A stretch of 64,000 nt of DNA. It comes from Desulfomonilia bacterium. Lineage in GTDB: Bacteria > Desulfobacterota > Desulfomonilia > UBA1062. Positions 34,600 to 56,768 of the stretch are shown here, piece after piece. Each line of letters opens with the position of its first letter. Within the stretch, counting starts at the first letter, position 1. The notes beneath the pieces are model-generated. The model saw only the letters and a program-made list of their open reading frames with translations, was not told the DNA's origin and ran no database searches. Where the stretch lies: contig JBEKDT010000008.1 in the NCBI GenBank assembly GCA_050014195.1, positions 64,001 through 128,000 of the forward strand, given 5' to 3'. The position numbers and the translations under genes were made by a program.

Positions 34600-35084
34600 A
34601 GAGGGCAGGGGTCATCACCCTGAGCGACAAGGGTTCTCAAGGGCTGCGTCAGGACTTAAGCGGCCCCATCATCAAGGAGATCCTCACAGCCTTAAACATA
34701 TCAGTGGAGATGGCCGAAATCATCCCCGACGACTATGACCTCATCAGAAACCGTCTCATCTCCTGGTGTGATGAGCACCGCCTCGACCTCATCGTCACTA
34801 CCGGCGGTACCGGGCTATCCTTAAGGGATGTGACACCTGATGCCACACTTTCAGTCATCGACAAGCGCGTCCCCGGCATGGAAGAGGTGATGCGTGCAGA
34901 GAGCCTCAAAAAGACCCCCCATGCCATGATCTCCAGGGCCGTAGCTGGTGTCAGGAAGCATACCCTCATTGTCAATGTACCCGGCAGCCCCAAGGGGGCG
35001 AGGGAGTGCCTCGAAAGTATCGCACATGCCTTGCCCCACGCCTTGGACAAGCTTGGCGGGGACATGAGCGACTGCGCGCAGTAA
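34596..35084 (+). CDS. mog: Molybdopterin adenylyltransferase (MogA/MoaB family)
   Basis: ITLSDKG, DLSGP, TTGGTG..RDVTPDAT, SRAVAG and NVPGSPKG motifs. Confidence 0.92.
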   Translation: MKRAGVITLSDKGSQGLRQDLSGPIIKEILTALNISVEMAEIIPDDYDLIRNRLISWCDEHRLDLIVTTGGTGLSLRDVTPDATLSVIDKRVPGMEEVMRAESLKKTPHAMISRAVAGVRKHTLIVNVPGSPKGARECLESIAHALPHALDKLGGDMSDCAQ

Positions 35085-35109
35085 AGTTTTTTTGTGCTGA
35101 TGCCGTAAC
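35082..35109 (+). promoter_or_regulatory. Putative sigma28 (FliA) promoter of the PhcB-like gene
   Basis: TAAAGTTT-N12-GCCGTAAC versus the consensus TAAAGTTT-N11-GCCGATAA. Confidence 0.45.
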
Positions 35110-35171
35110 AGTAAACGTAATGTGGCTGAATTATTATGCGGGCATTTCCATATCTGATGAGGTGAGAAGGA

Positions 35172-36632
35172 TTGAGGCTCAAGCGTGATCTGAGATACAC
35201 CGTGGAGGCCGGTGACACCAGTAAAACCATCCACTTCCACGACTTCCAGAAGACCGAGCATATCTGCCCGGTCAAGGATTACTCCCGTACCGGGGCATCC
35301 TTCTATCTTGAAGACGGCAGCCTCCTTCTGAAGATCGGAGACATCATCCCTGACCTTAAGTTCTACTCTTTCAACCAGGAAGTTCATGCCTCCGGGGCAA
35401 CCATCATCCATATCCAGGATGAGGAGCAGGGCGGTCAGGCGGTATCCTGCATCGGCTGTTCATACAATGACAAGTCCATGGATGTCTATTCCATCATAAG
35501 GACCGACAAGATCACCAAGCTCCAGAATGATTTTTTGGACTTTGTCCAGTCCATGGCCATTGAGGAGAACCTCGACCCGGAGTTCGTCAACATCACCTCC
35601 CACCTCCACTACATCCTAGACGGGTTTCAGGAGAGGCTAGTCCAGGACTTCCAAACCATACACAGCGAAGACGAGTCCCTTCAAGGCGCATTGGTGGAGA
35701 CCCTGCGGGAACTTGCCTTTGATGCATTGTTCGATGAGTTGAATCGCTATTATGACGATTTTACCAGGATCATCAGCCGTTTCGCCGACTCCAAACAGCA
35801 TTACATACATAGAGAATTCTTCCAGAAACGCCTTCATTCTTACCTGTCAAAGTCCAGGCTGTTCAACCGGAGCATCACCAAGCCTTTGGGGTATGCAGGC
35901 GATTACGAGATGATGAATATCATCTACCGCAACGCCTTCGAGGGCGAAGACCTTTTCTCTCAGGTGCTGAATAAAGTCGATTGCGAGGGCACTGCTTCGA
36001 GGGCCGTGAGAAACCGTCGGTCGTACTTATACAAGAAGCTTAAGGGTCTTGTAACAAACAATACTTCAAGCAATGACCTCAAGATCATGAGCGTGGCCTG
36101 CGGCCCGGCCCTTGAACTCGCCGACCTGCTCAAAAGTTTTGAAGGAAAGACCTTGCCGTTTCATGTTGAATTCATTGCCATGGACCAGGACAACCTTGCC
36201 CTTGAAGATGCCAAGGCCCGGACCAAACCGCTGGTGAAGGATATCCCTCAGATGAGGTTCCACTTTGAGCAGGACAACATCAAGCGGCTCATCGTAGAAA
36301 AAGGTAACAACAAAGGTATTTATGGCGAAGCGGATTTCGTCTATTCTGCGGGGCTGTTCGACTATCTCTCCGACAGGGCGTCCAACAGGCTCATCAAAAA
36401 ACTTTACAGCTTCCTCAAACCCGGCGGCCTCCTGGTGATAGGAAATTTCGGCCCATATAACCCACAGAGATTCATCATGGAATTCGGTGCAGAATGGTTC
36501 CTGATCCATCGGAACGAATTCGAGCTCAAGGCGCTTGCCGGCGATCTGCCGGGAAATCCCACCCTAATCGTAGAAAAGGAACCGGAGGGAGTAAATCTCT
36601 TTCTCAATATACTAAAGCCCGTAGATGCTTAA
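35172..36632 (+). CDS. PhcB-like class I SAM-dependent methyltransferase with a PilZ-like N-terminal domain
   Basis: KPLGYAGDYEM, RAVRNR, SVACGPA, YSAGLFDYLSD, NP...ME...EW.LIHR and GVNLF motifs recalled from Ralstonia PhcB; N-terminal KRDLR and DYSRTG; TTG start (in-frame stop upstream). Confidence 0.8.
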   Translation: MRLKRDLRYTVEAGDTSKTIHFHDFQKTEHICPVKDYSRTGASFYLEDGSLLLKIGDIIPDLKFYSFNQEVHASGATIIHIQDEEQGGQAVSCIGCSYNDKSMDVYSIIRTDKITKLQNDFLDFVQSMAIEENLDPEFVNITSHLHYILDGFQERLVQDFQTIHSEDESLQGALVETLRELAFDALFDELNRYYDDFTRIISRFADSKQHYIHREFFQKRLHSYLSKSRLFNRSITKPLGYAGDYEMMNIIYRNAFEGEDLFSQVLNKVDCEGTASRAVRNRRSYLYKKLKGLVTNNTSSNDLKIMSVACGPALELADLLKSFEGKTLPFHVEFIAMDQDNLALEDAKARTKPLVKDIPQMRFHFEQDNIKRLIVEKGNNKGIYGEADFVYSAGLFDYLSDRASNRLIKKLYSFLKPGGLLVIGNFGPYNPQRFIMEFGAEWFLIHRNEFELKALAGDLPGNPTLIVEKEPEGVNLFLNILKPVDA

Positions 36633-36639
36633 GACCTAA

Positions 36640-37661
36640 CAAGTCTTGCCTCTCAGAAATGTGCGAACGATGACAATACCTGTTAACCTTGTCCATAAGC
36701 CAACTTATAGCACCTTTCTCGTACTAAAGTTGTCATGAACCATAAAATAATATCCAATATTATTTGTTATTCCATCTAGCTATTAAATATTCATTGCCCC
36801 TAAAAACAACCGATAAGCCCTTAGATTGGTATATTTTTTCAAGAGTCGCAAGTTGCTGCAATGATAAAACATCATCGTGATAAATATATATTCTTCCTGA
36901 AAAGGAAAGGTCTTTTGAAGATGTTTGCTGTGAATCACCCACAAATCCACCAGTTATTATAGTGGATGATTCAATATTATCCATTGTTTTTTTATACTCT
37001 TCAGATATCAATCCACAGGCGATATAAGAACTATTGGATATTGGCCCGGATGCTGGAATATAGAAGCCAATGAATTTTGATTTACCCTGAAAATCAAAAT
37101 ATTCTGTCGCATATAACGTGATAGTTTTTCCATTAGATAGATTGGCCTTCATTTCGATTGATTGTCTTAATAATGTATTAAAATCAGTTTTAAAAAGCTC
37201 ATGAAGACTTGGGGATGCTTGGTTTGGTACTATCTTAGAAGAGGATTGTTTTTGAGCCATTTGTTTATTCCATGAATGTTCTCTGTCGCTTACCCATCTT
37301 ATCGAACATAGCCACAAAGAACCAATAATACCAAAAATTATAAAAGCAAAGATTGTTAACTGATATTTACTTGCGGATTGTTCGAACGATAGCCACCAAC
37401 CAATGCGGGCCAATAGAATAGCGGCAGCAAATGAAAAGGAAACGTGGGCGATTGTGAATGATGGGGGATTCATACTTAACACCCCTACTCCGACGCCAAT
37501 GAGCACAGGGCATATACATAATACAGTAGTCCAACTAAACAGCCACCCCCACATATAATAATTTTAACACTAATTCTGCTTAGATTAAATATATAATATG
37601 GCGTTGCTGGAATTGTGGTCGGTTTTGGAATTAACCAAACTGACCCACTACCCAAGTCTTG
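36640..37661. mobile_element. Small AT-rich insert bounded by the 9-bp direct repeat CAAGTCTTG
   Basis: Visibly AT-rich; CAAGTCTTG at 36640-36648 and 37653-37661; no transposase. Confidence 0.35.
36760..37554 (-). CDS. Hypothetical membrane protein (about 3 TM plus a soluble domain)
   Basis: 264-aa ORF in AT-rich DNA, with hydrophobic N-terminal segments. Confidence 0.65.
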   Translation of the reverse strand: MWGWLFSWTTVLCICPVLIGVGVGVLSMNPPSFTIAHVSFSFAAAILLARIGWWLSFEQSASKYQLTIFAFIIFGIIGSLWLCSIRWVSDREHSWNKQMAQKQSSSKIVPNQASPSLHELFKTDFNTLLRQSIEMKANLSNGKTITLYATEYFDFQGKSKFIGFYIPASGPISNSSYIACGLISEEYKKTMDNIESSTIITGGFVGDSQQTSSKDLSFSGRIYIYHDDVLSLQQLATLEKIYQSKGLSVVFRGNEYLIARWNNK

Positions 37662-37690
37662 GGATATCTTGACTGTTCCTTTTGAAAACC

Positions 37691-38194
37691 TCAGGTAACC
37701 CCAAAGACCTCCTCGAACTGTGTGATGTCCGGCAATTCCGACAAAGAGGTGAGCCCAAAGACCTCCAGGAACTTTTCTGTTATGTAATACAACATGGGTT
37801 TACCAGGCTTGATGTCAATGAGCTGGTGTTTTATGAGCTGTTTGAGGCTTGAGGTGGAATCCACACCCCTGATGCCGTCGATGGTCTGCTTAGAGCAGGG
37901 TCCTTTATACGCTATAACCGCAAGGACCTCAATCGAAGCACTTGTGAGCTTCACCGGGGTCACGAGCTGTCTGAGATAGGGTGCATACTCCGGAAGCGTC
38001 ACAAACATATACCCGGTGGCAACGAGATGAATCCTGAAACTCCGGTTAGAAGCCTCATAGATACCGTTGAGTTCCTCAATGTATCGCTCGATCTCTTCTC
38101 GCGAAGATCCCGGCAGAATCCTTATGATATCCTTCACAGTAAGTGCGCTGCCGGATGAAAAGATAAGCGCCTCAATGATCTCCCGCTTTCCCAT
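37691..38194 (-). CDS. scpB: SMC-Scp complex subunit ScpB
   Basis: IEALIF, EVLAVIAYKGP, IRGVDS and FLEVFGL..L.ELP motifs. Confidence 0.92.
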   Translation of the reverse strand: MGKREIIEALIFSSGSALTVKDIIRILPGSSREEIERYIEELNGIYEASNRSFRIHLVATGYMFVTLPEYAPYLRQLVTPVKLTSASIEVLAVIAYKGPCSKQTIDGIRGVDSTSSLKQLIKHQLIDIKPGKPMLYYITEKFLEVFGLTSLSELPDITQFEEVFGVT

Positions 38195-38234
38195 ACTTAC
38201 TCAACCTCTCCATTCTTCACAGGCATGCTCCACC

Positions 38235-38963
38235 TCATTTGTTCTCCGTCCTCTTTATCAGGTAGATGGTGGAGAACAGGCCTCTCTGGATGAGTCTCAC
38301 AATGCTCAGCTTCGACATCTCCAGGGCTGCCATAAACGCGCCGATGATCTCGGTCTTTTCACCGGTCGGGGCAGCTTCCTTGAGTGTAATCTTCTTTTTC
38401 CCGGAAAAGAGTGCCTGTATGCGGGCCATGATGTCCTGGATGGAAAACCGCATGGGAGTGATATTCATGATAAGCTGCTTGGTACGGGCCCTGATAGCCT
38501 GAATCGCCTCCATCAAAGGGCCGAGGCTCGTCTTTGTGATATCTCTCTCTTCCGATGTTGCACCCTTGGGAAAGGTATCCCAGTAAAGTATGGGCCTCAT
38601 GCCGAGTTCACGGGAAGCCGCCTTGATGGCCTGGTAGGCAAGCAGCATCTCCTTGAGCTCATCGGCCGGGTTCTTCCCCTCCTCATCGGTATAGGTAAGC
38701 TCCTCGGGCAACAGGAGGCGGGACTTCAACCAGATAAGGTATGAGGCCATTTCGAGAAACTCACCGGCCAATGAGATATCAAGAGATCTTACCCGCTCGA
38801 TATAAGACAGGTACTGGTCAATAATGGGGCATACCTCGAGGTCATGCAGGGTGAAGCGATTTTTCTCGATGAGGTAGAGCAAGAGGTCGAGCGGGCCCTC
38901 GAACATGGGAAGGTGCAGCACGAAATCATCATACACTGTCTCGGTGCTCCCAAGATACCCCAT
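38235..38963 (-). CDS. scpA: Segregation and condensation protein ScpA
   Basis: FEGPLDLLLYLI, EFLEMAS.LIWLKSRLLLP and FMAALEM motifs. Confidence 0.93.
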   Translation of the reverse strand: MGYLGSTETVYDDFVLHLPMFEGPLDLLLYLIEKNRFTLHDLEVCPIIDQYLSYIERVRSLDISLAGEFLEMASYLIWLKSRLLLPEELTYTDEEGKNPADELKEMLLAYQAIKAASRELGMRPILYWDTFPKGATSEERDITKTSLGPLMEAIQAIRARTKQLIMNITPMRFSIQDIMARIQALFSGKKKITLKEAAPTGEKTEIIGAFMAALEMSKLSIVRLIQRGLFSTIYLIKRTENK

Positions 38964-38976
38964 GGTTTCCCCCGTA

Positions 38977-39963: not shown

Positions 39964-39975
39964 ATAGTTCCTTTT

Positions 39976-42217: not shown

Positions 42218-42241
42218 CATGTGCATGGAGCACTTTATAAT
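42214..42241 (+). promoter_or_regulatory. Consensus sigma70 promoter of the IHF/HU gene
   Basis: TTGACA-N16-TATAAT. Confidence 0.8.
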
Positions 42242-42656: not shown

Positions 42657-44060
42657 ATGGGTAACCATTCTATACTTATTGTTGACGATGAAATCCAAAA
42701 TCGGGAATACCTTTCCGAGATCCTCTCAGATGAAGGGTATTCCATTACTACGGCTGCAAACGGAAAGGATGCCATCTCCAGACTTACCCAGGATACTTTC
42801 CAGGTAGTACTTACCGATCTCCAGATGCCGGAACTCGATGGACTCGGCGTCATAGAGTATCTAATCGAGAATAAGCTGAACACCATCGGCATTCTCTATA
42901 CGGGCTATGGCTCGGTAAAAACCGCGGTGGATGCCATGAAGCTTGGGGCCTTTGATTATATCACCAAGCCCTTCAAGGCCGACGAAATCAAAGTCGTGGT
43001 GAAAAAGGCCCTTGACCACCTCGCCTTGCAGGAGGAAAACACTTACCTGAAACAGCAGCTCAAGGCCCGCTATAAGTTCGAGAACATCGTGGGGACTTCC
43101 GAGAAGATGCAGAAGATCTTCGGTCTCATCGACAAGGTAGCCTCAACGGACTCCACGGTCCTGATCCTCGGTGAATCAGGTACCGGCAAGGAGCTCGTTG
43201 CCCGGGCTCTGCATTATAATTCCATGAGATCTGCAAACGCATTTATCCCCGTAAACTGCGGGGCTATCCCCGAAGAGCTGCTTGAGAGCGAGCTCTTTGG
43301 CCATGAAAAAGGCGCTTTCACCGGTGCGTTCAGGACCAGGATCGGCAGGTTCGAGCTTGCCTGCGGCGGCAGCATATTCTTGGATGAAATTTCTGAGATG
43401 AGCCCAAACCTCCAGGTAAAGCTGCTTCGCGTCATCCAGGAGAGGGAATTCGAACGTGTCGGCGGGATCAAGACCATCAGGGCTGATGTGCGGATAATCG
43501 CCGCAACAAACAAGAACCTCGAGGAAGAGGTCGCTGAAGGCAGATTCCGGGAAGATCTCTACTACAGGCTTAATGTCATACCCATCCACCTTCCTCCCTT
43601 GCGCGAGAAGACCGATGACATACCGTTGCTCATCAAGCATTTTCTGGAGAAGTACAGCGAAGGCAAGTCACCCAAGAAAGTTGAATTCAGCAAAAAGGCC
43701 ACAACTTCACTCATGCGCTATCGCTGGCCCGGCAATGTACGCGAGCTGGAAAACCTGGTGGAACGCATGGTGGTTTTGAGCGATTCCCCCATTATTGATG
43801 TTGCAGATCTACCGGAAAAGGTCCTCACCGGTGCCACGGTGATATCTTCCGCCATCCCGCAACTCGATCTGCCCGAGACAGGAATTGATCTGTCTACCGC
43901 AGTGAATGAATTCGAGCGGAGTATTATCGTCCAGGCCCTCAATAAGAGCAATTGGGTCAAAAACCGTGCCGCTAAGCTCCTGCACGTGAATAGAACGACA
44001 CTGGTGGAGAAGATCAAGAAACAGAAACTCCAAAAACCCACTGAATCGAATATTTCCTAA
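42657..44060 (+). CDS. Sigma54-dependent response regulator (REC-AAA-HTH), likely flagellar regulator
   Basis: Intact TDLQMP receiver; [23 protein letters not shown] and [10 protein letters not shown] motifs; Fis-type HTH. Confidence 0.93.
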
Positions 44061-44138
44061 TACAACATAAATTTTATATCATCTAACGAGATCCTGATAC
44101 CGATTGCATGGCCCCTTGATCCTTAAGCCTTATGGATG

Positions 44139-44154
44139 TGGCATGGAAGTTGTA
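44139..44154 (+). promoter_or_regulatory. Probable sigma54 promoter (GT variant at -12)
   Basis: TGGCATGGAAGTTGTA upstream of the TPR gene. Confidence 0.45.
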
Positions 44155-44194
44155 TTTTCATGCTGCGGTGAAGAACAACAGCTCTATTAAAATT

Positions 44195-46825: not shown

Positions 46826-48171
46826 GCATGGGGATCGCCATCTTGGATGAAGACAAAGAGACCGTTAACATACTTGCCGAGCTCATTGCAGAGCTGGGCG
46901 AGTCTCCCTTTCCCTTTGTCGACAAGGATAAATTCTTAGAAGCGATCAACCCAAAGCAACATGGCCTGGCAATCATCTCGGATGACTTCCTCGATGTGAT
47001 CGAAGGGACCAAACAAGTCTATGATTCAATCGAGATTGTGGCTATCGGTATAAAAGATGGTTCCACATGCCTCAAGGCCGGTGCTGCATATTTCCTGAAA
47101 AAACCCTTCCGGGCCGATGAGATGGTGAGCGTGCTTGAGGCCCTCATGACCCCAAAGGGTGGGCGGTCTGACGGCAAAGATTCAAGCTTTATCGTTGCCG
47201 ACCCTTCCATGAGGGGTATCGTGGAGATCATCCGGAAGGTCGCCCCAACCCAGGCCCCTGTGTTTATCCAGGGGGAATCCGGCACCGGCAAGGAGGTTAT
47301 TGCGAGAAACATCCATGCCTTAAGCAAGCGTAAAAGCGGGCCCTACGTGGGGATAAACCTCGCCGCCATCCCTGAGACGTTGATTGAAAGCGAGCTCTTC
47401 GGCTACGAGAAAGGTGCATTTACCGGGGCTTATGCCACTCGGATCGGCAAATTCGAGCAGGCCGACGGCGGAACCATCCTGCTGGATGAGATAACCGAGA
47501 TTAGTTCGGCCTTACAGGCAAAGCTGCTCAGAGTCTTGCAGGAAAGGCAGATCGACCGCGTGGGCGGTAAGTCTCCCATAAAGGTGGACTTCCGTGTCAT
47601 CTCCACAACCAACCGGGATATTGAAGAAGAGATTAAGACCTCAAGGTTCAGACACGACCTCTTCTTCCGCTTGAATGTGATCCCTATCAAGGTCCCGCCT
47701 TTACGAGTACGCAGAGAAGACATTATTCCCCTTTCCGCACACTTTATCAAGAAGATCGCTGAGAGGGAGGATATGCAGGAAAAAGTTCTCAGTAAGGAGG
47801 CAAAAGATTCCCTGTTGAAGTATCCCTGGCCCGGCAATGTCCGCGAACTTGAGAACGTTATCGAGCGTGCCATGATCCTCACCGATGGCGATGTGATCTC
47901 AATGGAACATATTACAACGAGCTGTGATGTTCCTGACATATTGGCCTCTATGCCCGTCATGGGTGCAACAATCCACGAGATGGAAAAAAATCTTATACTA
48001 TCAACGTTAAAAAGGGTTGACGGCAACAGGACCAAGGCTGCAACACTGCTGGGCATCAGTATACGGACCTTGCGGAATAAACTCAATGAATACACCAAAG
48101 GTGGTCAAATTTCTGACGTTGGGAATACTGAGTGCGGCGACCCTGACCCTGAAGAACCCTTGGAAACATGA
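46822..48171 (+). CDS. Sigma54-dependent activator with a degenerate receiver (flagellar FlrC/FlgR-like position)
   Basis: [14 protein letters not shown] and [10 protein letters not shown] motifs plus HTH; immediately upstream of the flgB promoter. Confidence 0.9.
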   Translation: MSMGIAILDEDKETVNILAELIAELGESPFPFVDKDKFLEAINPKQHGLAIISDDFLDVIEGTKQVYDSIEIVAIGIKDGSTCLKAGAAYFLKKPFRADEMVSVLEALMTPKGGRSDGKDSSFIVADPSMRGIVEIIRKVAPTQAPVFIQGESGTGKEVIARNIHALSKRKSGPYVGINLAAIPETLIESELFGYEKGAFTGAYATRIGKFEQADGGTILLDEITEISSALQAKLLRVLQERQIDRVGGKSPIKVDFRVISTTNRDIEEEIKTSRFRHDLFFRLNVIPIKVPPLRVRREDIIPLSAHFIKKIAEREDMQEKVLSKEAKDSLLKYPWPGNVRELENVIERAMILTDGDVISMEHITTSCDVPDILASMPVMGATIHEMEKNLILSTLKRVDGNRTKAATLLGISIRTLRNKLNEYTKGGQISDVGNTECGDPDPEEPLET

Positions 48172-48183
48172 GACATCGGCCCC

Positions 48184-48200
48184 TTGGTACGACAATTGCT
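48184..48200 (+). promoter_or_regulatory. Sigma54 promoter of the flgB operon
   Basis: TTGGTACGACAATTGCT (GG-N10-GC), 25 nt before the flgB ATG. Confidence 0.8.
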
Positions 48201-48224
48201 TTATGATACCTCAGGAGAGTGCTT

Positions 48225-48608
48225 ATGGCCAATATCTTCGGCAAAATCATCTCGGAAGTGACGGAGCACATGAACTACCGTACCTATCGCCAGGAGGTCA
48301 TATCCGGCAACATCGCCAATGTGGACACACCCGGCTACAGAGCCAAGGAGGCCCTGTTTGAAAGCGAGCTCGACTCCAAGCTCAAGCTTGCCACAACAAG
48401 CCCGCAACATTTGAAGAAATCGCCCGGGGAAAGTATGTTCAAAACCGTAGACGACCCATTTTCAAGGATCGGGAACGACTCCAACACCGTGGACATCGAC
48501 CGGGAAATGATGAAGCTCAACGAGAACCAGATCCTCTACAGCGCCTCGGCCGAGATCATCCAGACCAAACTCCAAGAGCTGAAAAACACCATAGGAGGCA
48601 TCCAATAA
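48225..48608 (+). CDS. flgB: Flagellar basal-body rod protein FlgB
   Basis: RQEVISGNIANVDTPGY and NTVDIDREM motifs. Confidence 0.95.
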   Translation: MANIFGKIISEVTEHMNYRTYRQEVISGNIANVDTPGYRAKEALFESELDSKLKLATTSPQHLKKSPGESMFKTVDDPFSRIGNDSNTVDIDREMMKLNENQILYSASAEIIQTKLQELKNTIGGIQ

Positions 48609-49012
48609 TGGACCTTTTCACAGCCATGGATATTAGTGCAAGCGGGCTTAGGGCTCAGCGGACCAGGATGAACGTCATCTCAAGCAATATCGCCAATGCC
48701 CACACCACGCATACCGATGAAGGCGGACCCTATAAGCGCAGGGATGTGATCCTGAAAGAGAGCTCCTTCGAAGGCCAGCTTGCAAGCGTCGATGTAGAGG
48801 GGATTAAGGCCGATTCCACCACGGGTGAACATATTTATGACCCGGGCAACCCCGATGCGGACGAGAAAGGTTACGTGACTATGCCCAATGTGAATCTCAT
48901 GGAGGAGATGGTGAATATGATGAATGCCACCAGGGCCTTTGAAGCCAACACCATTGCCGTGAAGGCGCAGAAAGACATGGCCCTGAAGGCACTGCAGATA
49001 GGAGGGAAGTAA
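48608..49012 (+). CDS. flgC: Flagellar basal-body rod protein FlgC
   Basis: SASGLRAQRTRMNVISSNIANA, GGPYKR and PNVN..EEM motifs. Confidence 0.96.
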   Translation: MDLFTAMDISASGLRAQRTRMNVISSNIANAHTTHTDEGGPYKRRDVILKESSFEGQLASVDVEGIKADSTTGEHIYDPGNPDADEKGYVTMPNVNLMEEMVNMMNATRAFEANTIAVKAQKDMALKALQIGGK

Positions 49013-49299
49013 TGCGTATCGACAAGTCTGATTTTACCCTTACAGGGCCCCTTACATCCAATGAGAAACCGAAAGGAAAGGGTCTGGATTTCGTTGATAC
49101 CCTCACCGATGCCATCAATTCAACGAACAGCCTGGTCAAGGAATCCGAGAAAGCGGCCACAGACCTATCTTCGGGCAAATCTCCCAATATTCATGAGGCC
49201 ATGATTGCCATGGAGAAAGCGGACATCTCCCTCCAGCTCCTCGTGAAGATGACCAGCAAGCTCATCGATGGCTACAACACGTTAAGTAGGTTGACATAG
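49012..49299 (+). CDS. fliE: Flagellar hook-basal body protein FliE
   Basis: IHEAMIAMEKA motif; position in the operon. Confidence 0.92.
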   Translation: MRIDKSDFTLTGPLTSNEKPKGKGLDFVDTLTDAINSTNSLVKESEKAATDLSSGKSPNIHEAMIAMEKADISLQLLVKMTSKLIDGYNTLSRLT

Positions 49300-49301
49300 C
49301 C

Positions 49302-50915
49302 ATGATAAACTTACTCAAACAGCTTCCGGCTAAGTTCGGCGCCATGAGTATGGGCCAGAGGTTCGGCCTTCTGGCCGTGGTCGGCCTTGCTGCTGCGGTC
49401 TTGGTAGTGAGCCTCATGTGGGCAACAGCCCCGAAATATCAGTACCTCTTTACCGACCTGAACGAGCAGGATGCCTCGCTGATCGTCCAGAACCTGAAGG
49501 AGAATCGCATCCCCTACCAGCTTACCAAGGGTGGTACCGCAATCATGATCCCGGAGGCCAACGTATACGAGACGCGCTTGTCGCTCGCAGGAAAGGGCCT
49601 GCCCAAGGGCGGTGTTGGAAAAGGGTTTGCGCTGTTCGATGAATCGGACTTCTCCCAGTCCGAGTTCGTACAGAAAATCAATTACCAAAGGGCGTTGCAG
49701 AACGAGCTTGCCAATACCATTATGTCCCTTGAAGCGGTCTCTTTTGCTCGAGTCCACATCGCCATGCCCAAGGAAAGCATCTTCATCGAGGATGAGAAGC
49801 CGGCCAAGGCCTCTATCGTCATCAAGATCAAGCCCGGCATGCAGATGAACCCTTCCCAGGTCCAGGGCATAGTATACCTTGTTGAAAAAAGTGTGCGGGG
49901 ACTGGACCCGGAGAATATCAGCATCGTAGACATCAAGGGAAAAGTCCTTTATGAGGGCAAAAAGAACAATGATTCGGTGGCCCTTGCCAGCGACCGTCTT
50001 GAATTCAAGCGGGCCATTGAAAACCAACTGCAGGAAAGGGCCCAGAGTCTCCTTGAGAAGATTGTAGGACCCCAGGCAGCCGTAGTGAAGGTAAGTGCGG
50101 ACGTGAACATGGACATGGTCAAGAGTGTCCAGGATAATTACGATCCCGAGATCCATGTGGTGCGCTCCGAAGAGGTCAAGAACCAGTATGCAGGCAAGGA
50201 AAAGAATACGCAGGGCGTTGCCGGAACGCCATCCAATCTGCCCACGGGAAAGGGAGGGCCTGAGGCAATCCCGCCGAACGGGGGATCGGGTGGAGAAAGC
50301 ATAGTCAGGAATTACGAGATCGGCAGAAACCAGACGGAACACGTCTTCTCTCCCGGGGATGTCAAACGGCTGACGGTATCTGTTGTAGTTGATGGGACAT
50401 ACAAGTCCGACAAGGGGGGTAACAAGCTGTTTGTCCCACGCCAGGCATCCGAACTCAAAGAGATCGAGAATGCGGTGAAGCAGACGGTCGGGTTCAATGC
50501 AGACCGTGAAGACATCATCTCGGTGTCCTGCATGCCCTTTGCCCAGGAGGACACCGACCTGGCAGCGCTTTCCGAAAAGGAAAAGAAGAAAGAATTCATC
50601 CTTACCCTGCTCAAACCGGCCGTGTTCCTCGTCGTAGTGATCCTTGTCCTGCTCTTCATAATCCGGCCAATGCTCAAATGGCTTAAGTCGGTGAGGGTGG
50701 TGGATCGGGTACATGCGCACGAAAGGGGTATCCCCATGGAGGACCGCGAGCTCCTTGAGGGCGGAGAGGAAGTGCCCCAGCTCGAAGTTGCTCCCAAGAG
50801 CGAGGAGATGAAACGGGCGGTCCATGGAAAGCGCAAGGCCATCGAACAAACGGCACGAAATGATATGAACACCGCCTCAGCGGTAGTGAAGTCCTGGCTT
50901 CAGGAGAATGTATAA
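49302..50915 (+). CDS. fliF: Flagellar M-ring protein FliF
   Basis: Two TM helices; GFALFD, NYQRALQNEL, ARVHIAMP and RLTVSVVVDG motifs. Confidence 0.96.
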   Translation: MINLLKQLPAKFGAMSMGQRFGLLAVVGLAAAVLVVSLMWATAPKYQYLFTDLNEQDASLIVQNLKENRIPYQLTKGGTAIMIPEANVYETRLSLAGKGLPKGGVGKGFALFDESDFSQSEFVQKINYQRALQNELANTIMSLEAVSFARVHIAMPKESIFIEDEKPAKASIVIKIKPGMQMNPSQVQGIVYLVEKSVRGLDPENISIVDIKGKVLYEGKKNNDSVALASDRLEFKRAIENQLQERAQSLLEKIVGPQAAVVKVSADVNMDMVKSVQDNYDPEIHVVRSEEVKNQYAGKEKNTQGVAGTPSNLPTGKGGPEAIPPNGGSGGESIVRNYEIGRNQTEHVFSPGDVKRLTVSVVVDGTYKSDKGGNKLFVPRQASELKEIENAVKQTVGFNADREDIISVSCMPFAQEDTDLAALSEKEKKKEFILTLLKPAVFLVVVILVLLFIIRPMLKWLKSVRVVDRVHAHERGIPMEDRELLEGGEEVPQLEVAPKSEEMKRAVHGKRKAIEQTARNDMNTASAVVKSWLQENV

Positions 50916-51931
50916 TGGGCAAGCTCAAGAAGGTTGACGGCCCCCAGAAGGCCGCTATCTTTCTCATGGCAATGGGTGACGAATTCACCCGGGCCATATT
51001 CAAGGGATTGACCGAACACGAAATGAAACTTCTCGGCAAACGCATGGCAGCCCTCGAAGATGTGACCATCCCGGTCGACACGGTCCAGAATATCATGGAC
51101 GAGTTCTTACAGTTGAGCTCCGAGGTGAGCGGTGTCACTGGCAAAGGCATCGAGTACCTGCGTGATGCCCTCGTCTCGTCATTAGGCGCTGATAAGGCAA
51201 AGCCTATCATGGATTCCATATCCCAGGCCATGGACACCGCTGCGTTCTCATCGCTGAGGGCCGTCGACGCATCGATTCTCGTTGACTATCTTAAGGGAGA
51301 GCATCCCCAGACCATAGCGCTGGTGCTGGCCCACCTGGATTATATGAAGGTCGCCCAGATCATAAAGGAGATGCCTGAGAAGCTCCAGCCGGAGATCGTC
51401 TTTCGTATCGCCAACCTCGGCATGGTGCCTGCAGGCGTCATCGAGGATGTGGATGACGTACTCAAGAAGGAGATCGAGGCCATGGGGAGCGTGGAAAGCA
51501 AGAAGCTCGGAGGCATCGAGACCGTGGCCGAAATCATGAACCAGCTTGACCATAACACCGAGAACAACATCTTCGCTTCATTGGAAGAGATAGATGCCGA
51601 TATGGCCGAAAACATCCGTCAGAAGATGTTTGTCTTCGAAGACCTCATCAACATCGACAACCGCGGCATCCAGACCATCCTCAAGGAGATCACGAACGAA
51701 GATCTGTCCCTGGCTCTCAAGACCTCCAGCGAGACGCTCAAGGCCCATATTCTCAAGAATATGTCTTCACGCGCCTCAGAGATGCTCCTGGAAGACATGG
51801 AGACCATGGGCCCGGTGAAGCTCTCGGATGTGGAGAACGCCCAGCAGAACATCGTACGCGTGGCAAGGAAGCTGGAGGCTGCCGGCAAGATCGTGATCAG
51901 CGGAAAGGGCGGAGAGGATGTCCTCATCTAG
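50915..51931 (+). CDS. fliG: Flagellar motor switch protein FliG
   Basis: KAAIFL, EHPQTIALVL, MFVFEDL and NMSSRA motifs. Confidence 0.97.
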   Translation: MGKLKKVDGPQKAAIFLMAMGDEFTRAIFKGLTEHEMKLLGKRMAALEDVTIPVDTVQNIMDEFLQLSSEVSGVTGKGIEYLRDALVSSLGADKAKPIMDSISQAMDTAAFSSLRAVDASILVDYLKGEHPQTIALVLAHLDYMKVAQIIKEMPEKLQPEIVFRIANLGMVPAGVIEDVDDVLKKEIEAMGSVESKKLGGIETVAEIMNQLDHNTENNIFASLEEIDADMAENIRQKMFVFEDLINIDNRGIQTILKEITNEDLSLALKTSSETLKAHILKNMSSRASEMLLEDMETMGPVKLSDVENAQQNIVRVARKLEAAGKIVISGKGGEDVLI

Positions 51932-52562
51932 AATCATCCGCAACAACGACAAAAAAGATTGTACGGTTACCCCCTATTGTATCAAGGAAATGCAGGACAA
52001 GGGCGGACTCAAGGATGTGCAGATGCAGGCCGACGCTATCCTGAAGAAGGCCGGCGCAGAAAAAGAGGCCATTGAGATGGAGGCCTATCGCAAAGGCCTT
52101 GAACAGGGCCAAGCCCAGGGACAGAAGATGGCGGCCAAGAAGATCGAACCCCTCATCCAGGCGGTTTCAAATGCCATTGAAGAGCTCAAAAAGATGAGGC
52201 AGCTTATCATCGAGAAGCACCAGGACCAGCTTCTTGAGATACTCATACTGATGGCGGAGAAGGTTATCCATCGGGAAATCCACCTCTCTCCGGACATCAT
52301 CTTGGATACTATCAGACAAGCCTGCACTCATCTCACCGAGACCGAAGAGATCCGCATGAGGATCCACCCTTCCGACTTTGAATATATCCGCGACATCGAG
52401 CGGATACTCTCGACACATCTCACAGGCAAGAAAAATGTCCACTTTGTCGAGGACGGAGCCATTGATCGCGGTGGAATCATTATCGACACGGAATTCGGCG
52501 AGATCGACGCGAGTATCCGGTCGCAGATTGATCATATGAGAGAGGTCCTGCTGGAAAAATGA
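51918..52562 (+). CDS. fliH: Flagellar assembly protein FliH
   Basis: AxxxG repeats; GGIIIDTEFGEIDAS. Confidence 0.9.
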   Translation: MSSSRIIRNNDKKDCTVTPYCIKEMQDKGGLKDVQMQADAILKKAGAEKEAIEMEAYRKGLEQGQAQGQKMAAKKIEPLIQAVSNAIEELKKMRQLIIEKHQDQLLEILILMAEKVIHREIHLSPDIILDTIRQACTHLTETEEIRMRIHPSDFEYIRDIERILSTHLTGKKNVHFVEDGAIDRGGIIIDTEFGEIDASIRSQIDHMREVLLEK

Positions 52563-53890
52563 CGGGGCTTAAGAGACATATCCTTGCCTTACGTGAGACT
52601 GATCCCATCCAGGTCAGAGGCAAGGTGACCAACATCGTGGGCCTTGTAGTGGAGGGTCACGGCCCGGGCAGCGCCATGGGCGGGATGTGCGAGATCTACT
52701 CCAAGGCCAGGAAAAACTCCATCATGGCAGAGGTGGTGGGCTTTCGTGACAAACGTGTGCTTTTAATGCCGCTGGGCGACCTGAGCGGGATAGGCCCGGG
52801 CAGCGTAATTATTGCCAGAAAATCGCAACCAGTAGTCAAGGTCGGCAATGACTTGCTCGGCAGGGTCATCGACGGCATGGGTGAGCCGTTGGATAGCAAG
52901 GGCCCACTCGTCCTCGATCATGAGATGCCTTTGTATGGAAACCCTTATAATCCCCTGAGGAAGAGGAGAATCAAGGAGTCGCTCGATCTTGGAATCAAGG
53001 CTATCAACGGCATCCTGACCGTAGGAAAGGGCCAGCGCATGGCCATTATGGCAGGCTCCGGCGTAGGTAAGAGCGTCCTCTTGGGCATGATTGCCCGCCA
53101 CACCAAGGCGGATGTGAACGTGATCGCACTCATCGGTGAAAGGGGAAGAGAAGTAAAGGAGTTCTTGGAAAGGGATTTGGGCGAAGAAGGGCTCAAGCGC
53201 TCCATAGTGGTAACCGCCATCTCGGACCAGCCTTCGCTCATCCGTATCAGGGGGGCTTATCTCGCCACTACCATTGCCGAATTCTTCAGGGACCAGGGCC
53301 TGGACGTTCTCCTTATGATGGACTCCATTACACGCTTCGCCATGTCCATGAGGGAGATCGGCCTGGCCGTCGGCGAGCCGCCCACTACCAAGGGATATAC
53401 CCCTTCCTGCTTCGCCAAGATGCCCAAGCTCTTGGAGCGGGTCGGGAACACCTCGTCCAAAGGGAGTATAACCGGATTATACACGGTGCTCGTCGAGGGT
53501 GATGACCTCACGGAGCCCGTAGCCGATGCCGTCCGCTCCATTGTGGACGGGCACATCGTACTCTCCCGCGATCTTGCAACCAGAGGCCACTACCCCGCCG
53601 TCGATATCCTCCGCAGCGTGAGCAGGGTCATGAGCGACATTGTAGCAGAAAAACACCTGAAGACGGCCCGAACCATCCAGTCCATTGCTGCAGTGTATGA
53701 AGAGGCAAAAGACCTCATCAATATTGGGGCCTATGTTGCAGGGAACAATCCTGAGATCGACAATGCGATCCACCACATCGATACCATCAATAATTTTCTA
53801 AAGCAGGACATCAATGAAAAGGCCACCATCGAACAGGCTGTAACCCAGATGAGTGCCATCGTGGACTCAAGGCATAAAGGGAATGCATAA
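52559..53890 (+). CDS. fliI: Flagellar export ATPase FliI
   Basis: AGSGVGKS, IGERGREV, MDSITRFA and DGHIVLSR motifs. Confidence 0.96.
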   Translation: MTGLKRHILALRETDPIQVRGKVTNIVGLVVEGHGPGSAMGGMCEIYSKARKNSIMAEVVGFRDKRVLLMPLGDLSGIGPGSVIIARKSQPVVKVGNDLLGRVIDGMGEPLDSKGPLVLDHEMPLYGNPYNPLRKRRIKESLDLGIKAINGILTVGKGQRMAIMAGSGVGKSVLLGMIARHTKADVNVIALIGERGREVKEFLERDLGEEGLKRSIVVTAISDQPSLIRIRGAYLATTIAEFFRDQGLDVLLMMDSITRFAMSMREIGLAVGEPPTTKGYTPSCFAKMPKLLERVGNTSSKGSITGLYTVLVEGDDLTEPVADAVRSIVDGHIVLSRDLATRGHYPAVDILRSVSRVMSDIVAEKHLKTARTIQSIAAVYEEAKDLINIGAYVAGNNPEIDNAIHHIDTINNFLKQDINEKATIEQAVTQMSAIVDSRHKGNA

Positions 53891-54331
53891 ATGGCCTTCA
53901 AGTTTAAGTTCGCAACATTGCTGAATGTGAGGAAGATACAGGAGAACATAGCCCTGCAGGCTTTCTCCCAGGCTCAGAGGTACTTAAGTTCGCTTAAGGC
54001 CATGAGGGAGCAGGTCTTAGCCAGAAGAGACATCCTCAGGGTAGAGCTCATGACCAGGATGAAACAGGGCTTAAGTGCCACGGAAGTCAAGATCTACTAT
54101 GACTACATTTCCCATCTGGAGCAAACCATAGAGCGTATTAATGAGAATATTAAGATCGCAGGGCAGCAGGTGGAAGAGAAGAGAAAAGAGCTATTAAAGG
54201 CCAAACGGGCCTCTACGGTCATCACAAGACTCAAGGAGATCCATCAGGCCAGGTTCGATGAGTCCGAGAGGAAGAAAGATATGGTCTTCCTCGATGAAAT
54301 CGCGATCCTTAAGGCTGGAGGTGAGAGATGA
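53891..54331 (+). CDS. fliJ: Flagellar export protein FliJ
   Basis: FKFKFATLL N-terminus, coiled coil and terminal LDE; follows fliI. Confidence 0.88.
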   Translation: MAFKFKFATLLNVRKIQENIALQAFSQAQRYLSSLKAMREQVLARRDILRVELMTRMKQGLSATEVKIYYDYISHLEQTIERINENIKIAGQQVEEKRKELLKAKRASTVITRLKEIHQARFDESERKKDMVFLDEIAILKAGGER

Positions 54332-54900
54332 AGGCAAAGATACTGCTGGGATTGGTGTTCATCAATCTTGTATTTATAGGCATCTACCTGGCGGTAAAAC
54401 CCACGCCGGTACAGGCAGGGAACCCTACAGCGAATAACCAGACGACCGTCAAAACCGAGCAGCAGCAACCGGCCCCTTCTCCCATAAGCCTTTCGCCTAC
54501 GGATCAGCTTGAGATCCTCAGGCAGAAGGAAGAGAGGCTCAAGGCCCGTGAAATGGAGCTCAAGGAGCTTGAGACGGAGGTCGAGGAGAAGATCAAGAAG
54601 CTGGAGACGATTGAATCCTCCATTAAAAATGACCTTGCCTCTTATAAAGTGGAGAGTAACGATCGAATCAAGCAACTCGTCAAGATCTATTCCTCCATGA
54701 AGCCGAATGCTGCAGCGAACCTGATGAATAACATCGATACGGATGTGGCTGTCCAGGTATTTATCGGAATGAAAGGAGACATTGCGGGCAGCATACTGTC
54801 CTACATGGAACCCGTAAAGGCCGCCGGTATCACACAGAGACTGGTTTACTACCGTGGAAGTAATACCACATCGACCGAGACGGCACCTGCCGAGAAATAA
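54328..54900 (+). CDS. MotE/MgtE_N-like flagellar-associated protein
   Basis: N-terminal TM, coiled coil, LVKIYSSMKPNAAA...ILSYMEP repeats. Confidence 0.8.
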   Translation: MKAKILLGLVFINLVFIGIYLAVKPTPVQAGNPTANNQTTVKTEQQQPAPSPISLSPTDQLEILRQKEERLKAREMELKELETEVEEKIKKLETIESSIKNDLASYKVESNDRIKQLVKIYSSMKPNAAANLMNNIDTDVAVQVFIGMKGDIAGSILSYMEPVKAAGITQRLVYYRGSNTTSTETAPAEK

Positions 54901-54996
54901 GCAGAGGATGCAGTGAAACAAACTGTGTACCGGATAAGGAGAAAAGTTGCATGCAGGAGCGGTTTTTCGTCGTGTCCGGAGATGACGAATACTACC

Positions 54997-56730
54997 TTAC
55001 TGTGATGCTCGGGCAACCGAATGGAGTGTCGTCCTGTTTTCCTGGTCACGGAAGAGCTCTTCCCTGATCCTGCGGAATTCATCCTCATTCTTGAGAAATG
55101 CATCCACGATATCAGGGGCGAAGTGGGTGCCACTGCTTTCCACGATAATCTCTTTGGCAGCCTGATGTGAATACGCTTCTTTATAGACTCTCTTGGAGGT
55201 CAAGGCGTCATACACATCCGCCAAAGCCACAATCCGGGCGGACAGAGGGATCTGATCTCCCTTGAGACCTCGAGGATATCCTGTTCCATCCCACTTCTCA
55301 TGGTGGTAATAGGCGATTTCCTTTCCCAAGGTAAGGAAGGACTGTCCTTCGATCTTGGTTTCCACCTCTCTGAGGGCATCACCTCCCAGGGCAGAGTGGC
55401 GTTTGATGATATCGAACTCATCGGGGGTGAGCTTACCCGGCTTCAGGAGAATTGCGTCGGGGACTCCGACCTTCCCGATATCGTGGAGAATGGATGAATT
55501 ATAGATGTCGTCAATGTATTCAGGGGTAATATACCCGGCATAATCAGATCCTTTAGCAAGATCTTCAGCTAATATTTTACTATACTCACGGATCCTCTCA
55601 AGATGCGCCCCGGTGTCTGCATCTCGATACTCGGCGAGTTTTGCAAGCCCAAGGATCGTGGCATTGCGGGCGCTTTGGACCTTTTTATAGGATTCAAACA
55701 GGTCATGTTCGAGCTTCTTCCGGACCGTAATATCCCGGATCACGAGTTGGAAGCCAACGATCTGGTAATCCTTCATGATGCACTTGGCATTGCACTCCAC
55801 CTCATAGACCTTACCCCTCTTGTTGACGATCTTGAACTGGATATCCTTGACCATCTGCTCCACAGGCAGCCTGATGATCATCCGCTCCACAAGGGTCACG
55901 TCCGAAGGATGAACAAGGTTCAAGAATCTGATGTCGGCATTCTCTTCTGGGGCACCTACGATCTCATAATATTTAGGATTGCCCATGAGAATCTTGGAAT
56001 CTCTGTCTACTAAAAGTACAATGTCAATGATGTTCTCATAAAGTTCACGGTATCTGAGTTCGGATTCCTTGAGTTGATTCATCCTCTTTTCAACCTCTGA
56101 TTCGAGGTTGTGGGCATAGAAGGAAAGTTTTTCTGCTAAGGAATCCATTTCCGACTTGAGCTTGACTCCCCGTATACGTGACCGGGTATCCTCAAAGCAT
56201 TTAAGGATCACTATCACGATGAAAAAGGCGAAGAAGAAGCTGTTGCTGAAGAATATATTGGTGTTTTCAGGGGTCGCATGAGATAAAAGCACAATAGGCA
56301 CTGCATAAACGATATAGAGTACTACCCCCATAATGGCTGCCTGCATGGCATCAAGGGGTAGAATGACCGTCACCGCCACCAGTACCATCACCACGCCTAC
56401 ATAATAGAAGGAATCATATCCGCCCATGTGCACGCACATGAGGGTGATGGTCAGCCCCGATACAAGATAGGCTATTATTGATATAGGATAAGCGAATTTC
56501 CTCCCATAATTGGAGAAATAAATCCCAAGAAAAACACTTAAGATAGCTGCACATCCGATTCTATATAAGAAGAACCGGGCGAGGTGCTGGCGTACCACTA
56601 CATAGTCGAGAATGGAAAACAGAGGGATCAGAACTATCCCAATGAGGAGGATGGCAAGCACCCTCTGATAGTACAATTCCCGCGTCTCTTCAAGGAATCG
56701 CCCGTACCATGGTTCTTTTATTGAAGACAT
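54997..56730 (-). CDS. Membrane sensor-PAS-HD-GYP c-di-GMP phosphodiesterase
   Basis: About 6 TM N-terminal domain, coiled coil and PAS, then AEYRD..TGAH, HDIGK, HHEKWDGTGYP and ADVYDAL motifs. Confidence 0.92.
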   Translation of the reverse strand: MSSIKEPWYGRFLEETRELYYQRVLAILLIGIVLIPLFSILDYVVVRQHLARFFLYRIGCAAILSVFLGIYFSNYGRKFAYPISIIAYLVSGLTITLMCVHMGGYDSFYYVGVVMVLVAVTVILPLDAMQAAIMGVVLYIVYAVPIVLLSHATPENTNIFFSNSFFFAFFIVIVILKCFEDTRSRIRGVKLKSEMDSLAEKLSFYAHNLESEVEKRMNQLKESELRYRELYENIIDIVLLVDRDSKILMGNPKYYEIVGAPEENADIRFLNLVHPSDVTLVERMIIRLPVEQMVKDIQFKIVNKRGKVYEVECNAKCIMKDYQIVGFQLVIRDITVRKKLEHDLFESYKKVQSARNATILGLAKLAEYRDADTGAHLERIREYSKILAEDLAKGSDYAGYITPEYIDDIYNSSILHDIGKVGVPDAILLKPGKLTPDEFDIIKRHSALGGDALREVETKIEGQSFLTLGKEIAYYHHEKWDGTGYPRGLKGDQIPLSARIVALADVYDALTSKRVYKEAYSHQAAKEIIVESSGTHFAPDIVDAFLKNEDEFRRIREELFRDQENRTTLHSVARASQ

Positions 56731-56741
56731 ATCATTTCATT

Positions 56742-56768
56742 CTATCGGCAAATGATTGAGAAAATTAA
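56742..56768 (-). promoter_or_regulatory. Putative sigma28 (FliA) promoter of the HD-GYP gene
   Basis: TTAA-N15-GCCGATAG on the minus strand, 11 nt before the ATG. Confidence 0.55.

Follow-up and report, generated by a model that had tools for sequence, protein, structure and literature searches.

General features of the locus

The window analysed here is a stretch of 64,000 nucleotides (G000:C8:64001-128000) from the genome of a Desulfomonilia bacterium (G000; 4.2 Mb in 29 contigs), and the sequencing runs that contain this stretch are peat and wetland metagenomes. It encodes two proteins that may form a signalling pair: P0001, a methyltransferase and putative signal synthase, and P0002, a membrane protein and putative receptor with a domain predicted to hydrolyse cyclic di-GMP (c-di-GMP). 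Both open reading frames (ORFs) were found where an earlier note on this DNA had placed them, at 35172-36632 on the forward strand and at 54997-56730 on the reverse strand. The features of the two genes, with the evidence on which each assignment is based, are the following.

35082-35109, forward: sigma-28-type promoter of the methyltransferase gene, TAAAGTTT-N12-GCCGTAAC, 63 nt upstream of the TTG (exact match, conservation)
35172-36632, forward: P0001, predicted PhcB-family S-adenosylmethionine (SAM)-dependent methyltransferase with N-terminal PilZ domain, 486 amino acids, TTG start, putative signal synthase (Pfam, pairwise alignment, model)
35196-35570, forward: predicted PilZ beta-barrel and C-terminal helix, residues about 9-133 (Pfam matches of the family, AlphaFold2 (AF2) domain model)
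36057-36629, forward: Rossmann-fold methyltransferase domain, residues about 296-486 (Pfam, alignment, AF2 model, fold search)
54997-56730, reverse: P0002, putative membrane receptor of 577 amino acids with six-helix PhcS-type sensor, PAS domain and HD-GYP c-di-GMP phosphodiesterase (Pfam, alignment, profile hidden Markov model (HMM))
55060-55692, reverse: HD-GYP domain, residues 347-557, HD and HHEKWDGTGYP motifs intact (PDB alignments)
55729-56055, reverse: cytoplasmic PAS domain, residues 226-334 (Pfam PAS E 4.5e-9; TIGR00229 E 1.2e-16)
56146-56730, reverse: PhcS-type (MASE8-like) transmembrane sensor, residues 1-195 (pairwise E 3e-11, reciprocal HMM)
56742-56768, reverse: sigma-28-type promoter of the receptor gene, TTAA-N15-GCCGATAG, with the -10 element ending 11 nt before the ATG (exact match, conservation)

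The putative synthase P0001

As a reference standing in for PhcB and PhcS of Ralstonia, we used a phcBSRQ-like operon identified by tblastn of plasmids on a megaplasmid of Paraburkholderia graminis. It consists of four genes encoding a methyltransferase (468 amino acids), a histidine kinase (445 amino acids) and two response regulators, and this order is that of phcBSRQ in Ralstonia according to PMC10653808. P0001 and the methyltransferase of the operon share 32% identity over residues 177-477 (E 5e-45). In an alignment of 20 sequences, including the Paraburkholderia enzyme, the family motifs KPxGYAGD, GP..E, Y..L..YL and W.L..R are invariant, having the forms KPLGYAGDYEMMN, CGPA.E, AGLFDYLS and EW.LI.R in P0001 and most other rows; the residues conserved throughout are K237, P238, G240, Y241, A242, G243, D244, G311, P312 and E315, as well as D338, Y391, L395, N425, N430, W442 and R447. 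Because of this alignment, and because all invariant family residues are common to both enzymes, P0001 is placed by its sequence in the PhcB family. A word-indexed search returned 1353 homologues, many of which carry a JGI name equal to the KEGG name of phcB, and the host genome has a single copy of this type of synthase.

The AF2 model of P0001 (predicted local distance difference test (pLDDT) 88.7) displays a beta-barrel (18-98), a helix (105-131), a helical bundle (136-295), which precedes the Rossmann domain and carries the KPLGYAGDYEMMN motif, and the Rossmann fold itself (303-481). Pfam matches to Methyltransf_25, Methyltransf_12, Methyltransf_31 and CheR cover residues 286-430. A fold search with the whole model retrieved small-molecule SAM methyltransferases, with the uncharacterised Bordetella protein 3ocj as top match; it did not point to a substrate, nor did it find a close relative with a solved structure. 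By homology to PhcB, at about 32% identity, the product of P0001 would be a fatty-acid methyl ester.

The CheR match suggests another function, in which P0001 would not be a signal synthase but would methylate proteins in the manner of CheR, namely chemoreceptors or flagellar proteins, under the control of c-di-GMP, as a MapZ-CheR arrangement within one polypeptide. The match to Pfam CheR has 27.6 bits (cut-off 27), CheR is matched by 10 of 19 family members, and the best PDB sequence match of the family profile is the CheR structure 5ftw (E 1.1e-5); a sigma-28 promoter and a PilZ domain would also suit such a role, given that the PilZ protein MapZ is reported to bind CheR (10.1101/814665). 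P0001 has no CheR_N domain, however, while seven genes of the host genome do, and a CheR-like role is therefore unlikely; in addition, the methyltransferase of the phcBSRQ-like operon has the same family motifs and helical domain, and the fold search ranks small-molecule methyltransferases and 3ocj above any CheR. The seven CheR_N proteins are encoded on seven contigs of G000, and two of them are about 900 amino acids long.

A PilZ domain in front of the methyltransferase

The earlier note had suspected a PilZ-like N-terminus in the synthase, and the structural model indeed gives it a PilZ fold. P0001 itself matches Pfam PilZ below the cut-off (residues 26-106, E 2.6e-3), while 14 of 19 family members match it, with a best E of 3.2e-14. 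PDB sequence searches with the family profile and with the N-terminal profile retrieved PilZ proteins only at E 0.45-1.2, which is below significance, and the identity of the domain was settled by the fold search. The AF2 model of residues 1-135 (pLDDT 86.5) has its strands between residues 18 and 98, followed by a helix (105-133), and its twelve PDB matches at E <= 1e-3 are without exception PilZ proteins, the majority in structures with c-di-GMP. They include MrkH, YcgR, PP4397, PlzA and a PilZ domain of Pseudomonas aeruginosa (4xrn), with Alg44 next in rank (E 2.3e-3); MapZ (5y4r) is also among the fold hits. The DxSxxG motif is intact in P0001 (DYSRTG) and the RxxxR motif reads KxxxR, so that the domain may plausibly bind c-di-GMP; the enzyme of the Burkholderiaceae type has neither of the two PilZ motifs, RxxxR and DxSxxG.

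Three PhcB-family enzymes of other Desulfobacterota carry a cyclic-nucleotide-binding domain in the place of PilZ (L162 5430-7022, L166 3771-5357 and L167 3495-5021), and two of the three are paired with HD-GYP receptors.

The putative receptor P0002

The N-terminal six-helix membrane domain of P0002 is, by sequence comparison, homologous to the sensor of PhcS-type kinases. An alignment with the Paraburkholderia operon kinase pairs residues 32-225 of P0002 with residues 32-221 of the kinase (E 3e-11, 23% identity, 4 gaps), and an HMM of the HD-GYP orthologues matches the same kinase at E 1.5e-18. Signature residues are common to both: R57, Y110 and G112 are invariant in an alignment of 20 rows, and D42, S107, Y109, F160, N163 and F166 are kept in at least 90% of them. 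P0002 has none of the kinase domains (HisKA, HATPase_c) and continues instead with PAS and HD-GYP, so that the idea of a PhcS-type sensor fused to a phosphodiesterase in place of a kinase is borne out by its domain content. The HD-GYP part matches HD_5 (E 4e-31), contains LHDIGK and HHEKWDGTGYP, and aligns with PA4781 (4r8z, E 1.3e-50) and PmGH (4mcw, E 6.6e-41); with its catalytic motifs intact, it is a putative c-di-GMP phosphodiesterase.

A dedicated PhcS kinase elsewhere in the genome could have explained the synthase without P0002. Profile searches of the 15953 ORFs of the host genome found neither a PhcS-type kinase nor a second copy of the sensor. A reciprocal HMM, built solely from the 47 methyltransferase-adjacent sensors described below, matches a membrane part only in P0002 (6.8e-26), and its next match in this genome covers linker columns alone.

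We also considered an assignment of the sensor to MASE8 (PF20968), which precomputed Pfam lists give for most P0002 orthologues. P0002 was rejected as a MASE8 domain proper: a scan at E <= 0.1 left it unmatched, and searching the genome for the family gave no member. The PhcS-type kinase (E 4.4e-3) and one adjacent sensor (E 1.8e-5, 25.4 bits against a cut-off of 26.2) match it weakly, and since all matches stay under the curated cut-off, the sensor of P0002 is at best a divergent branch of MASE8.

Predicted sigma-28 promoters of the two genes

Both sigma-28-like motifs quoted in the earlier note are present at 35082-35109 on the forward and 56742-56768 on the reverse strand, and fliA is found in the host genome (276 bits, over the cut-off), together with one flagellin gene preceded by a perfect TAAA-N15-GCCGATAA. 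The -10 element of the methyltransferase gene, GCCGTAAC, matches the consensus at five of eight positions. Taken as single sites the two motifs are weak, with 97 and 251 sites of equal mismatch class in the genome. Single-site statistics were for this reason dropped as evidence. What lifts the motifs above chance is their conservation in orthologues. Of the 19 orthologous methyltransferase loci, 11 carry TAAA-N15/16-GCCG at 37-75 nt before the start of the gene, and relaxing one base raises this number to 14; the pattern is kept despite diverged flanks, including at loci with a different upstream gene. The CCGATA core in front of the receptor gene keeps the same distance in 9 of 12 orthologues and lies 1 nt nearer to the gene in the remaining three, and the full pattern T(T/A)AA-N15/16-NCCGATA is present in seven of the 12, down to 50% protein identity. 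Among 4482 upstream windows of the host genome, the methyltransferase pattern occurs in 16 and the receptor pattern in 15 (about 0.35%), three of the latter at the distance seen for the receptor gene.

Transcription from sigma-28 promoters usually starts at a set spacing from the -10 element, and with 10-11 nt between this element and the ATG the receptor mRNA would have almost no leader. The -10 element of a second flagellin gene (G000:C9:23047-23066) lies 9 nt before its ATG, which suggests that near-leaderless mRNAs, predicted here for the receptor gene and a flagellin gene, occur within the FliA regulon of this lineage.

Good sigma-28-like sites also lie upstream of genes for a T2SSE/MshEN ATPase (C9:138584-140316), a GspH-type pseudopilin (C10:47813-48358), an HDOD protein (C1:171991-172813), a chemoreceptor (C5:168549-170267) and an NlpC/P60 hydrolase (C6:58783-59728). 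MshEN is a c-di-GMP-binding domain, and judging from these sites the FliA regulon may reach to pilus and c-di-GMP genes. Several strong sites inside genes or upstream of those for a topoisomerase, RACo and a pyridoxal phosphate (PLP) enzyme were set aside as chance occurrences.

Pairing of synthase and sensor genes in other genomes

The gene neighbourhoods of PhcB-family genes were compared at 79 loci of species-representative genomes, 55 of them distant and 24 of the Desulfomonilia type. An HMM of the sensor, built from residues 1-215 of 56 HD-GYP orthologues only, was searched against the 8557 ORFs of all loci. In 47 of the 55 distant loci it matches the same-strand ORF directly downstream of the methyltransferase gene (E 2.6e-5 to 7.6e-34), in Myxococcota, Nitrospirota, Acidobacteriota, Bdellovibrionales and gamma-proteobacteria; the remaining matches are the HD-GYP orthologues, the Paraburkholderia kinase and one weaker, opposite-strand sensor kinase (L055). 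None of the 24 Desulfomonilia-type loci has the sensor beside the synthase.

Output domains were scanned in 22 of the 47 adjacent sensors: fifteen have a kinase, a receiver and a second kinase-like domain, two a kinase and a receiver, one a SpoIIE phosphatase in addition and one a kinase only, and three are adenylate/guanylate cyclases. The kinase-receiver-kinase-like sensors correspond in domain content to PhcS fused to a PhcR-like part. That the sensor stays with the synthase while the output is swapped would be expected if the sensor reads the product of the synthase.

In Myxococcota (within L076-L128) the sensor gene encodes a single protein of 850-950 amino acids with transmembrane (TM), HisKA, HATPase and REC parts and a second kinase-like ATPase; in L117 the sensor is fused to a kinase, a receiver and a SpoIIE phosphatase; and adenylate/guanylate cyclase fusions stand beside a PhcB homologue in Acidobacteriota and Bdellovibrionales (L116, L125 and L126, about 10817-12563).

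Within the phylum, 151 genomes were sampled, 147 of which reach at least 90% completeness with no more than 5% contamination. Both genes occur in 11 genomes; two have a synthase, in each case a short form, without the sensor, 11 have the sensor without a synthase, and 127 lack the two. In all eight genomes outside the family of the window that have both, the pair lies within 2 kb. In G184 a methyltransferase with a cyclic nucleotide monophosphate (cNMP)-binding domain is directly followed by two TM-PAS-HD-GYP genes, and the first of these receptors is a full-length homologue of P0002 (37% identity, residues 11-565, 5 gaps, E 5e-126); P0002 is therefore a member of a family of receptors whose genes elsewhere form operons with those of PhcB-like synthases. 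G164 has a cNMP-binding methyltransferase followed by TM-HD-GYP, G114 a TM-PAS-GGDEF gene beside a short methyltransferase, and the other five have kinase outputs and PilZ or cNMP-binding synthases. Co-occurrence of PhcB homologues with the sensor, a point on which the earlier reading could be checked, is thus seen at 47 of 55 loci across phyla and includes some HD-GYP outputs. Neither PhcB relatives carrying a PilZ domain nor HD-GYP proteins with a PhcS-type sensor were found described in the literature, searched with supplements outside the search.

Distribution and loss among relatives

The family of the window was sampled with 24 genomes in addition to G000, and its sister family with 16. 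The synthase is present in 20 genomes of the family sample; it is found in 18 of the 21 family genomes that have fliF (G000 counted) and is absent from all 16 sister-family genomes, which are fliF-negative. A receptor orthologue accompanies the synthase in 14 of the 20 genomes and is missing from the other six, and none of the 21 synthase-negative genomes (5 in the family, 16 in the sister family) has one.

Synteny at both sites shows that this pattern reflects real gains or losses. At the synthase site, mogA and scpB are only 45-115 bp apart in G001, G002 and G024. The receptor site measures 146 bp in G001 and 304 bp in G010, where the absence of the gene is thereby confirmed, and holds 1.6 kb of unrelated DNA in G014. 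In G002 about 400 bp remain at the receptor site, with remnants of the 3' end, the middle, and the promoter and ATG of the receptor gene, and what is left at the synthase site is part of the methyltransferase promoter together with 28 bp of the gene. As remnants are present at both separate sites, both genes were lost in the lineage of G002.

Comparison with known signalling systems

The closest known system is phcBSRQ of Ralstonia and Cupriavidus, in which, according to PMC10653808, methyl 3-hydroxypalmitate or methyl 3-hydroxymyristate is the product of PhcB, a methyltransferase, PhcS acts as sensor kinase, and PhcR combines a receiver with a kinase-like protein. P0001 and P0002 share with it the methyltransferase family with its signature motifs, a homologous six-helix sensor and the logic of a synthase plus a membrane receptor, and homologues in other phyla keep the phcB-phcS order, often with PhcS fused to a PhcR-like part. 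They differ in that the output is PAS-HD-GYP and not a histidine kinase, that the genes are separated by 18 kb and each have a predicted sigma-28 promoter, and that the synthase has a PilZ domain with DxSxxG, where the Burkholderiaceae-type enzyme compared lacks both PilZ motifs.

In its way of working the proposed circuit most resembles two other lipid-signal systems that end in c-di-GMP hydrolysis. In the system of the Burkholderia diffusible signal factor (BDSF), the fatty acid produced by the synthase RpfF is bound by RpfR, a receptor with PAS, GGDEF and EAL domains that breaks down c-di-GMP. As would be the case here, the protein that receives the fatty-acid-type signal also serves as the c-di-GMP phosphodiesterase, and no phosphorelay intervenes; the proteins are unrelated, however, RpfR being soluble with an EAL domain and RpfF a crotonase-family enzyme rather than a methyltransferase. 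The diffusible signal factor (DSF) of Xanthomonas acts through the sensor kinase RpfC, which phosphorylates the receiver-HD-GYP protein RpfG. There too a lipid signal ends in c-di-GMP hydrolysis by HD-GYP, controlling motility against biofilm, but by a two-component step, whereas sensor and HD-GYP are one polypeptide in P0002, and the sensor and synthase described here are unrelated to RpfC and RpfF.

For the synthase, a parallel is provided by MapZ-CheR1 of Pseudomonas aeruginosa, where a c-di-GMP-binding PilZ protein regulates a methyltransferase, according to 10.1101/814665. Both cases combine a PilZ domain and a class I SAM methyltransferase in the context of motility, with the difference that MapZ and CheR1 are separate proteins with a chemoreceptor as substrate, and P0001 is a fusion within a PhcB-family enzyme.

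A proposed circuit and its alternatives

We propose that the synthase and the receptor are a Phc-type pair which is unlinked and placed in the FliA regulon, with c-di-GMP hydrolysis as output and feedback through PilZ, and we put the probability of this reading at about 0.6. It is carried by family membership, sensor homology, pairing elsewhere, the catalytic motifs, the PilZ fold, conservation of the sigma-28 motifs and co-distribution. In such a circuit, FliA (sigma-28) would switch on both genes late in flagellar assembly. The PilZ-methyltransferase would then methylate a small hydrophobic acid with SAM to give an ester able to permeate membranes, which, if the analogy to PhcB holds, would be a 3-hydroxy fatty acid methyl ester, and its PilZ domain would make the output of the synthase dependent on cellular c-di-GMP. 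The six-helix PhcS-type domain would sense the ester within the membrane and act via PAS on the fused HD-GYP phosphodiesterase, so that the signal would act directly on c-di-GMP; the change in c-di-GMP would in turn affect motility and the synthase itself, closing a feedback loop. That these two proteins talk to each other is what we infer, as are the chemistry of the signal and c-di-GMP binding by this PilZ domain; the ester may switch the phosphodiesterase on or off, and the loop could have either sign. The data suggest that a lipid-like signal is both made and sensed by swimming cells and passes directly into c-di-GMP. The circuit as first read in the earlier note is supported to the extent that no in-silico refutation test that was run went against it.

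Several observations weigh against the proposed circuit. The N-terminus of P0001 falls outside the alignment with the Burkholderiaceae enzyme, the identity being 32%, and this reference enzyme is itself known here from its sequence. The RxxxR motif of PilZ has the form K4-R-D-L-R8 (KxxxR) in the genus of P0001, the equivalent motif being RRDxR in sister Desulfomonilia-type clades and RLRAR in Myxococcota homologues. In eight of the 55 distant loci no such sensor was found behind the methyltransferase, also with a combined HMM, and two of these eight have other multi-pass membrane ORFs downstream. The co-distribution counts come from related genomes and are hence non-independent. In the window itself, the genes are 18 kb apart on opposite strands and form no operon.

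The last of these points speaks also for the main rival, in which the two genes would be functionally independent members of the flagellar regulon: the receptor would be an orphan sensor of another lipid or envelope cue or of a foreign signal, and the product of the methyltransferase would be read otherwise or be no signal at all. Such independence would agree with the five synthase-positive relatives in which profile searches found no sensor of the P0002 family (G010, G016, G019, G020 and G021), three of which are 96-99% complete, and with the loss of the HD-GYP gene in G010 and G014 while the methyltransferase was kept, G014 having only a paralogous sensor of 664 amino acids. It would also agree with the presence of the sensor in 11 of the 138 synthase-negative genomes of the phylum sample, to which G012, G030, G032 and G040 are to be added; the sensor can thus work without a home-made signal or with other ligands. 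Harder to reconcile with independence is that the same type of sensor follows PhcB homologues in 47 of 55 loci and that a full-length receptor homologue (37%) is operonic with a PhcB-like gene. Moreover, no receptor orthologue was found in the 21 synthase-negative genomes of the two families, both genes were lost in G002, and the host genome has exactly one synthase and one such sensor. On balance we regard independent functions as unlikely, though this is the alternative to be taken most seriously.

The circuit might also be cell-autonomous, the ester staying in the membrane of its producer and reporting the state of lipids or c-di-GMP, as a private relay from PilZ to HD-GYP. Predicted co-expression of synthase and receptor under the same sigma factor in the same cells would allow this, as would a sensor wholly embedded in the membrane with short loops, and the sequence contains nothing for export or accumulation of the product. 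The experimentally studied relative, however, is a diffusible quorum signal according to PMC10653808, and the sensors without synthase in 11 genomes fit listening to others; a purely private relay is accordingly improbable. The least probable of the alternatives, a CheR-kind protein methyltransferase, also has against it that the partner across phyla is a membrane sensor and not a set of chemotaxis genes.

The proposed Phc-type pair differs from its relatives in wiring. Phc quorum sensing in Ralstonia and Cupriavidus is a virulence switch that works via a kinase cascade, and the same families of synthase and sensor are found here, differently wired, in an uncultured peat anaerobe. What is new is that the pair is separated, that the predicted sigma-28 control is conserved for the two genes and that one relative has lost them both. 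If the proposal is true, a single protein would link a self-made, lipid-type signal directly to the motility messenger c-di-GMP, and the locus would offer a testable example of feedback between quorum sensing and c-di-GMP. A broader view, to which we give somewhat less than even odds, is that Phc-type signalling is an old family spread across many phyla, consisting of a second-messenger-gated synthase (PilZ or cNMP-binding), one intramembrane sensor family and exchangeable outputs (kinase, cyclase, PP2C phosphatase, GGDEF and HD-GYP). Here it would be split under FliA, such that only flagellated cells speak and listen, giving a density-dependent switch from motile to sessile life without phosphorelay. 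A widespread signal family with interchangeable outputs would bring many uncharacterised pairs of Myxococcota, Acidobacteriota, Nitrospirota and Desulfobacterota within reach of the same assays.

Gene order and other features of the window

Between and around the two genes, the Pfam scan gave the following order. Genes for an EF-G-like protein, an unassigned protein and a MogA-like protein precede the methyltransferase gene. They are followed on the reverse strand by a 264-amino-acid ORF without Pfam match, scpB, scpA, trpS and an M50 peptidase gene, and then by an unassigned gene, a pseudouridine synthase gene and the genes for a sigma-54 response regulator, an 897-amino-acid TPR protein and a sigma-54 activator. 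Next come flgB, flgC, fliE, fliF, fliG, fliH, fliI, fliJ and a MgtE_N-like gene, and finally, on the reverse strand, the HD-GYP gene, a radical SAM gene and a gene for an AMP-binding enzyme. The flagellar part is one feature:

42657-54900, forward: flagellar context, from the sigma-54 response regulator, 897-amino-acid TPR protein and sigma-54 activator through flgB to fliJ and the MgtE_N-like gene (Pfam)

The two genes had been described as lying on either side of the flagellar cluster. This holds for the HD-GYP gene, which adjoins the cluster and is convergent with the end of the flgB-to-fliJ operon. In contrast, 6 kb lie between the methyltransferase gene and the first of the flagellar regulator genes, and 11.6 kb between it and flgB; it is set off from the flagellar block by opposite-strand housekeeping genes (scpB, scpA, trpS, M50 peptidase and pseudouridine synthase).

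Downstream of the methyltransferase gene, the 264-amino-acid ORF without Pfam match (36760-37554, reverse) is located in a low-GC stretch, with a GC content of 42.7% for 36001-38000 compared to about 50-54% in the surroundings. G014, where the methyltransferase is retained, lacks this ORF, as do G001, G002 and G024, and a 93-bp piece (36649-36741) is repeated at 90% identity on another contig of G002. The region 36633-37690 looks like a small insertion or repeat-bearing element.

Directly upstream of flgB (42657-48171), the 897-amino-acid TPR protein is encoded between two sigma-54 activators, one with and one without a receiver domain, and the three together are an unusual insert in a FleQ/FleR-like block of flagellar regulators.

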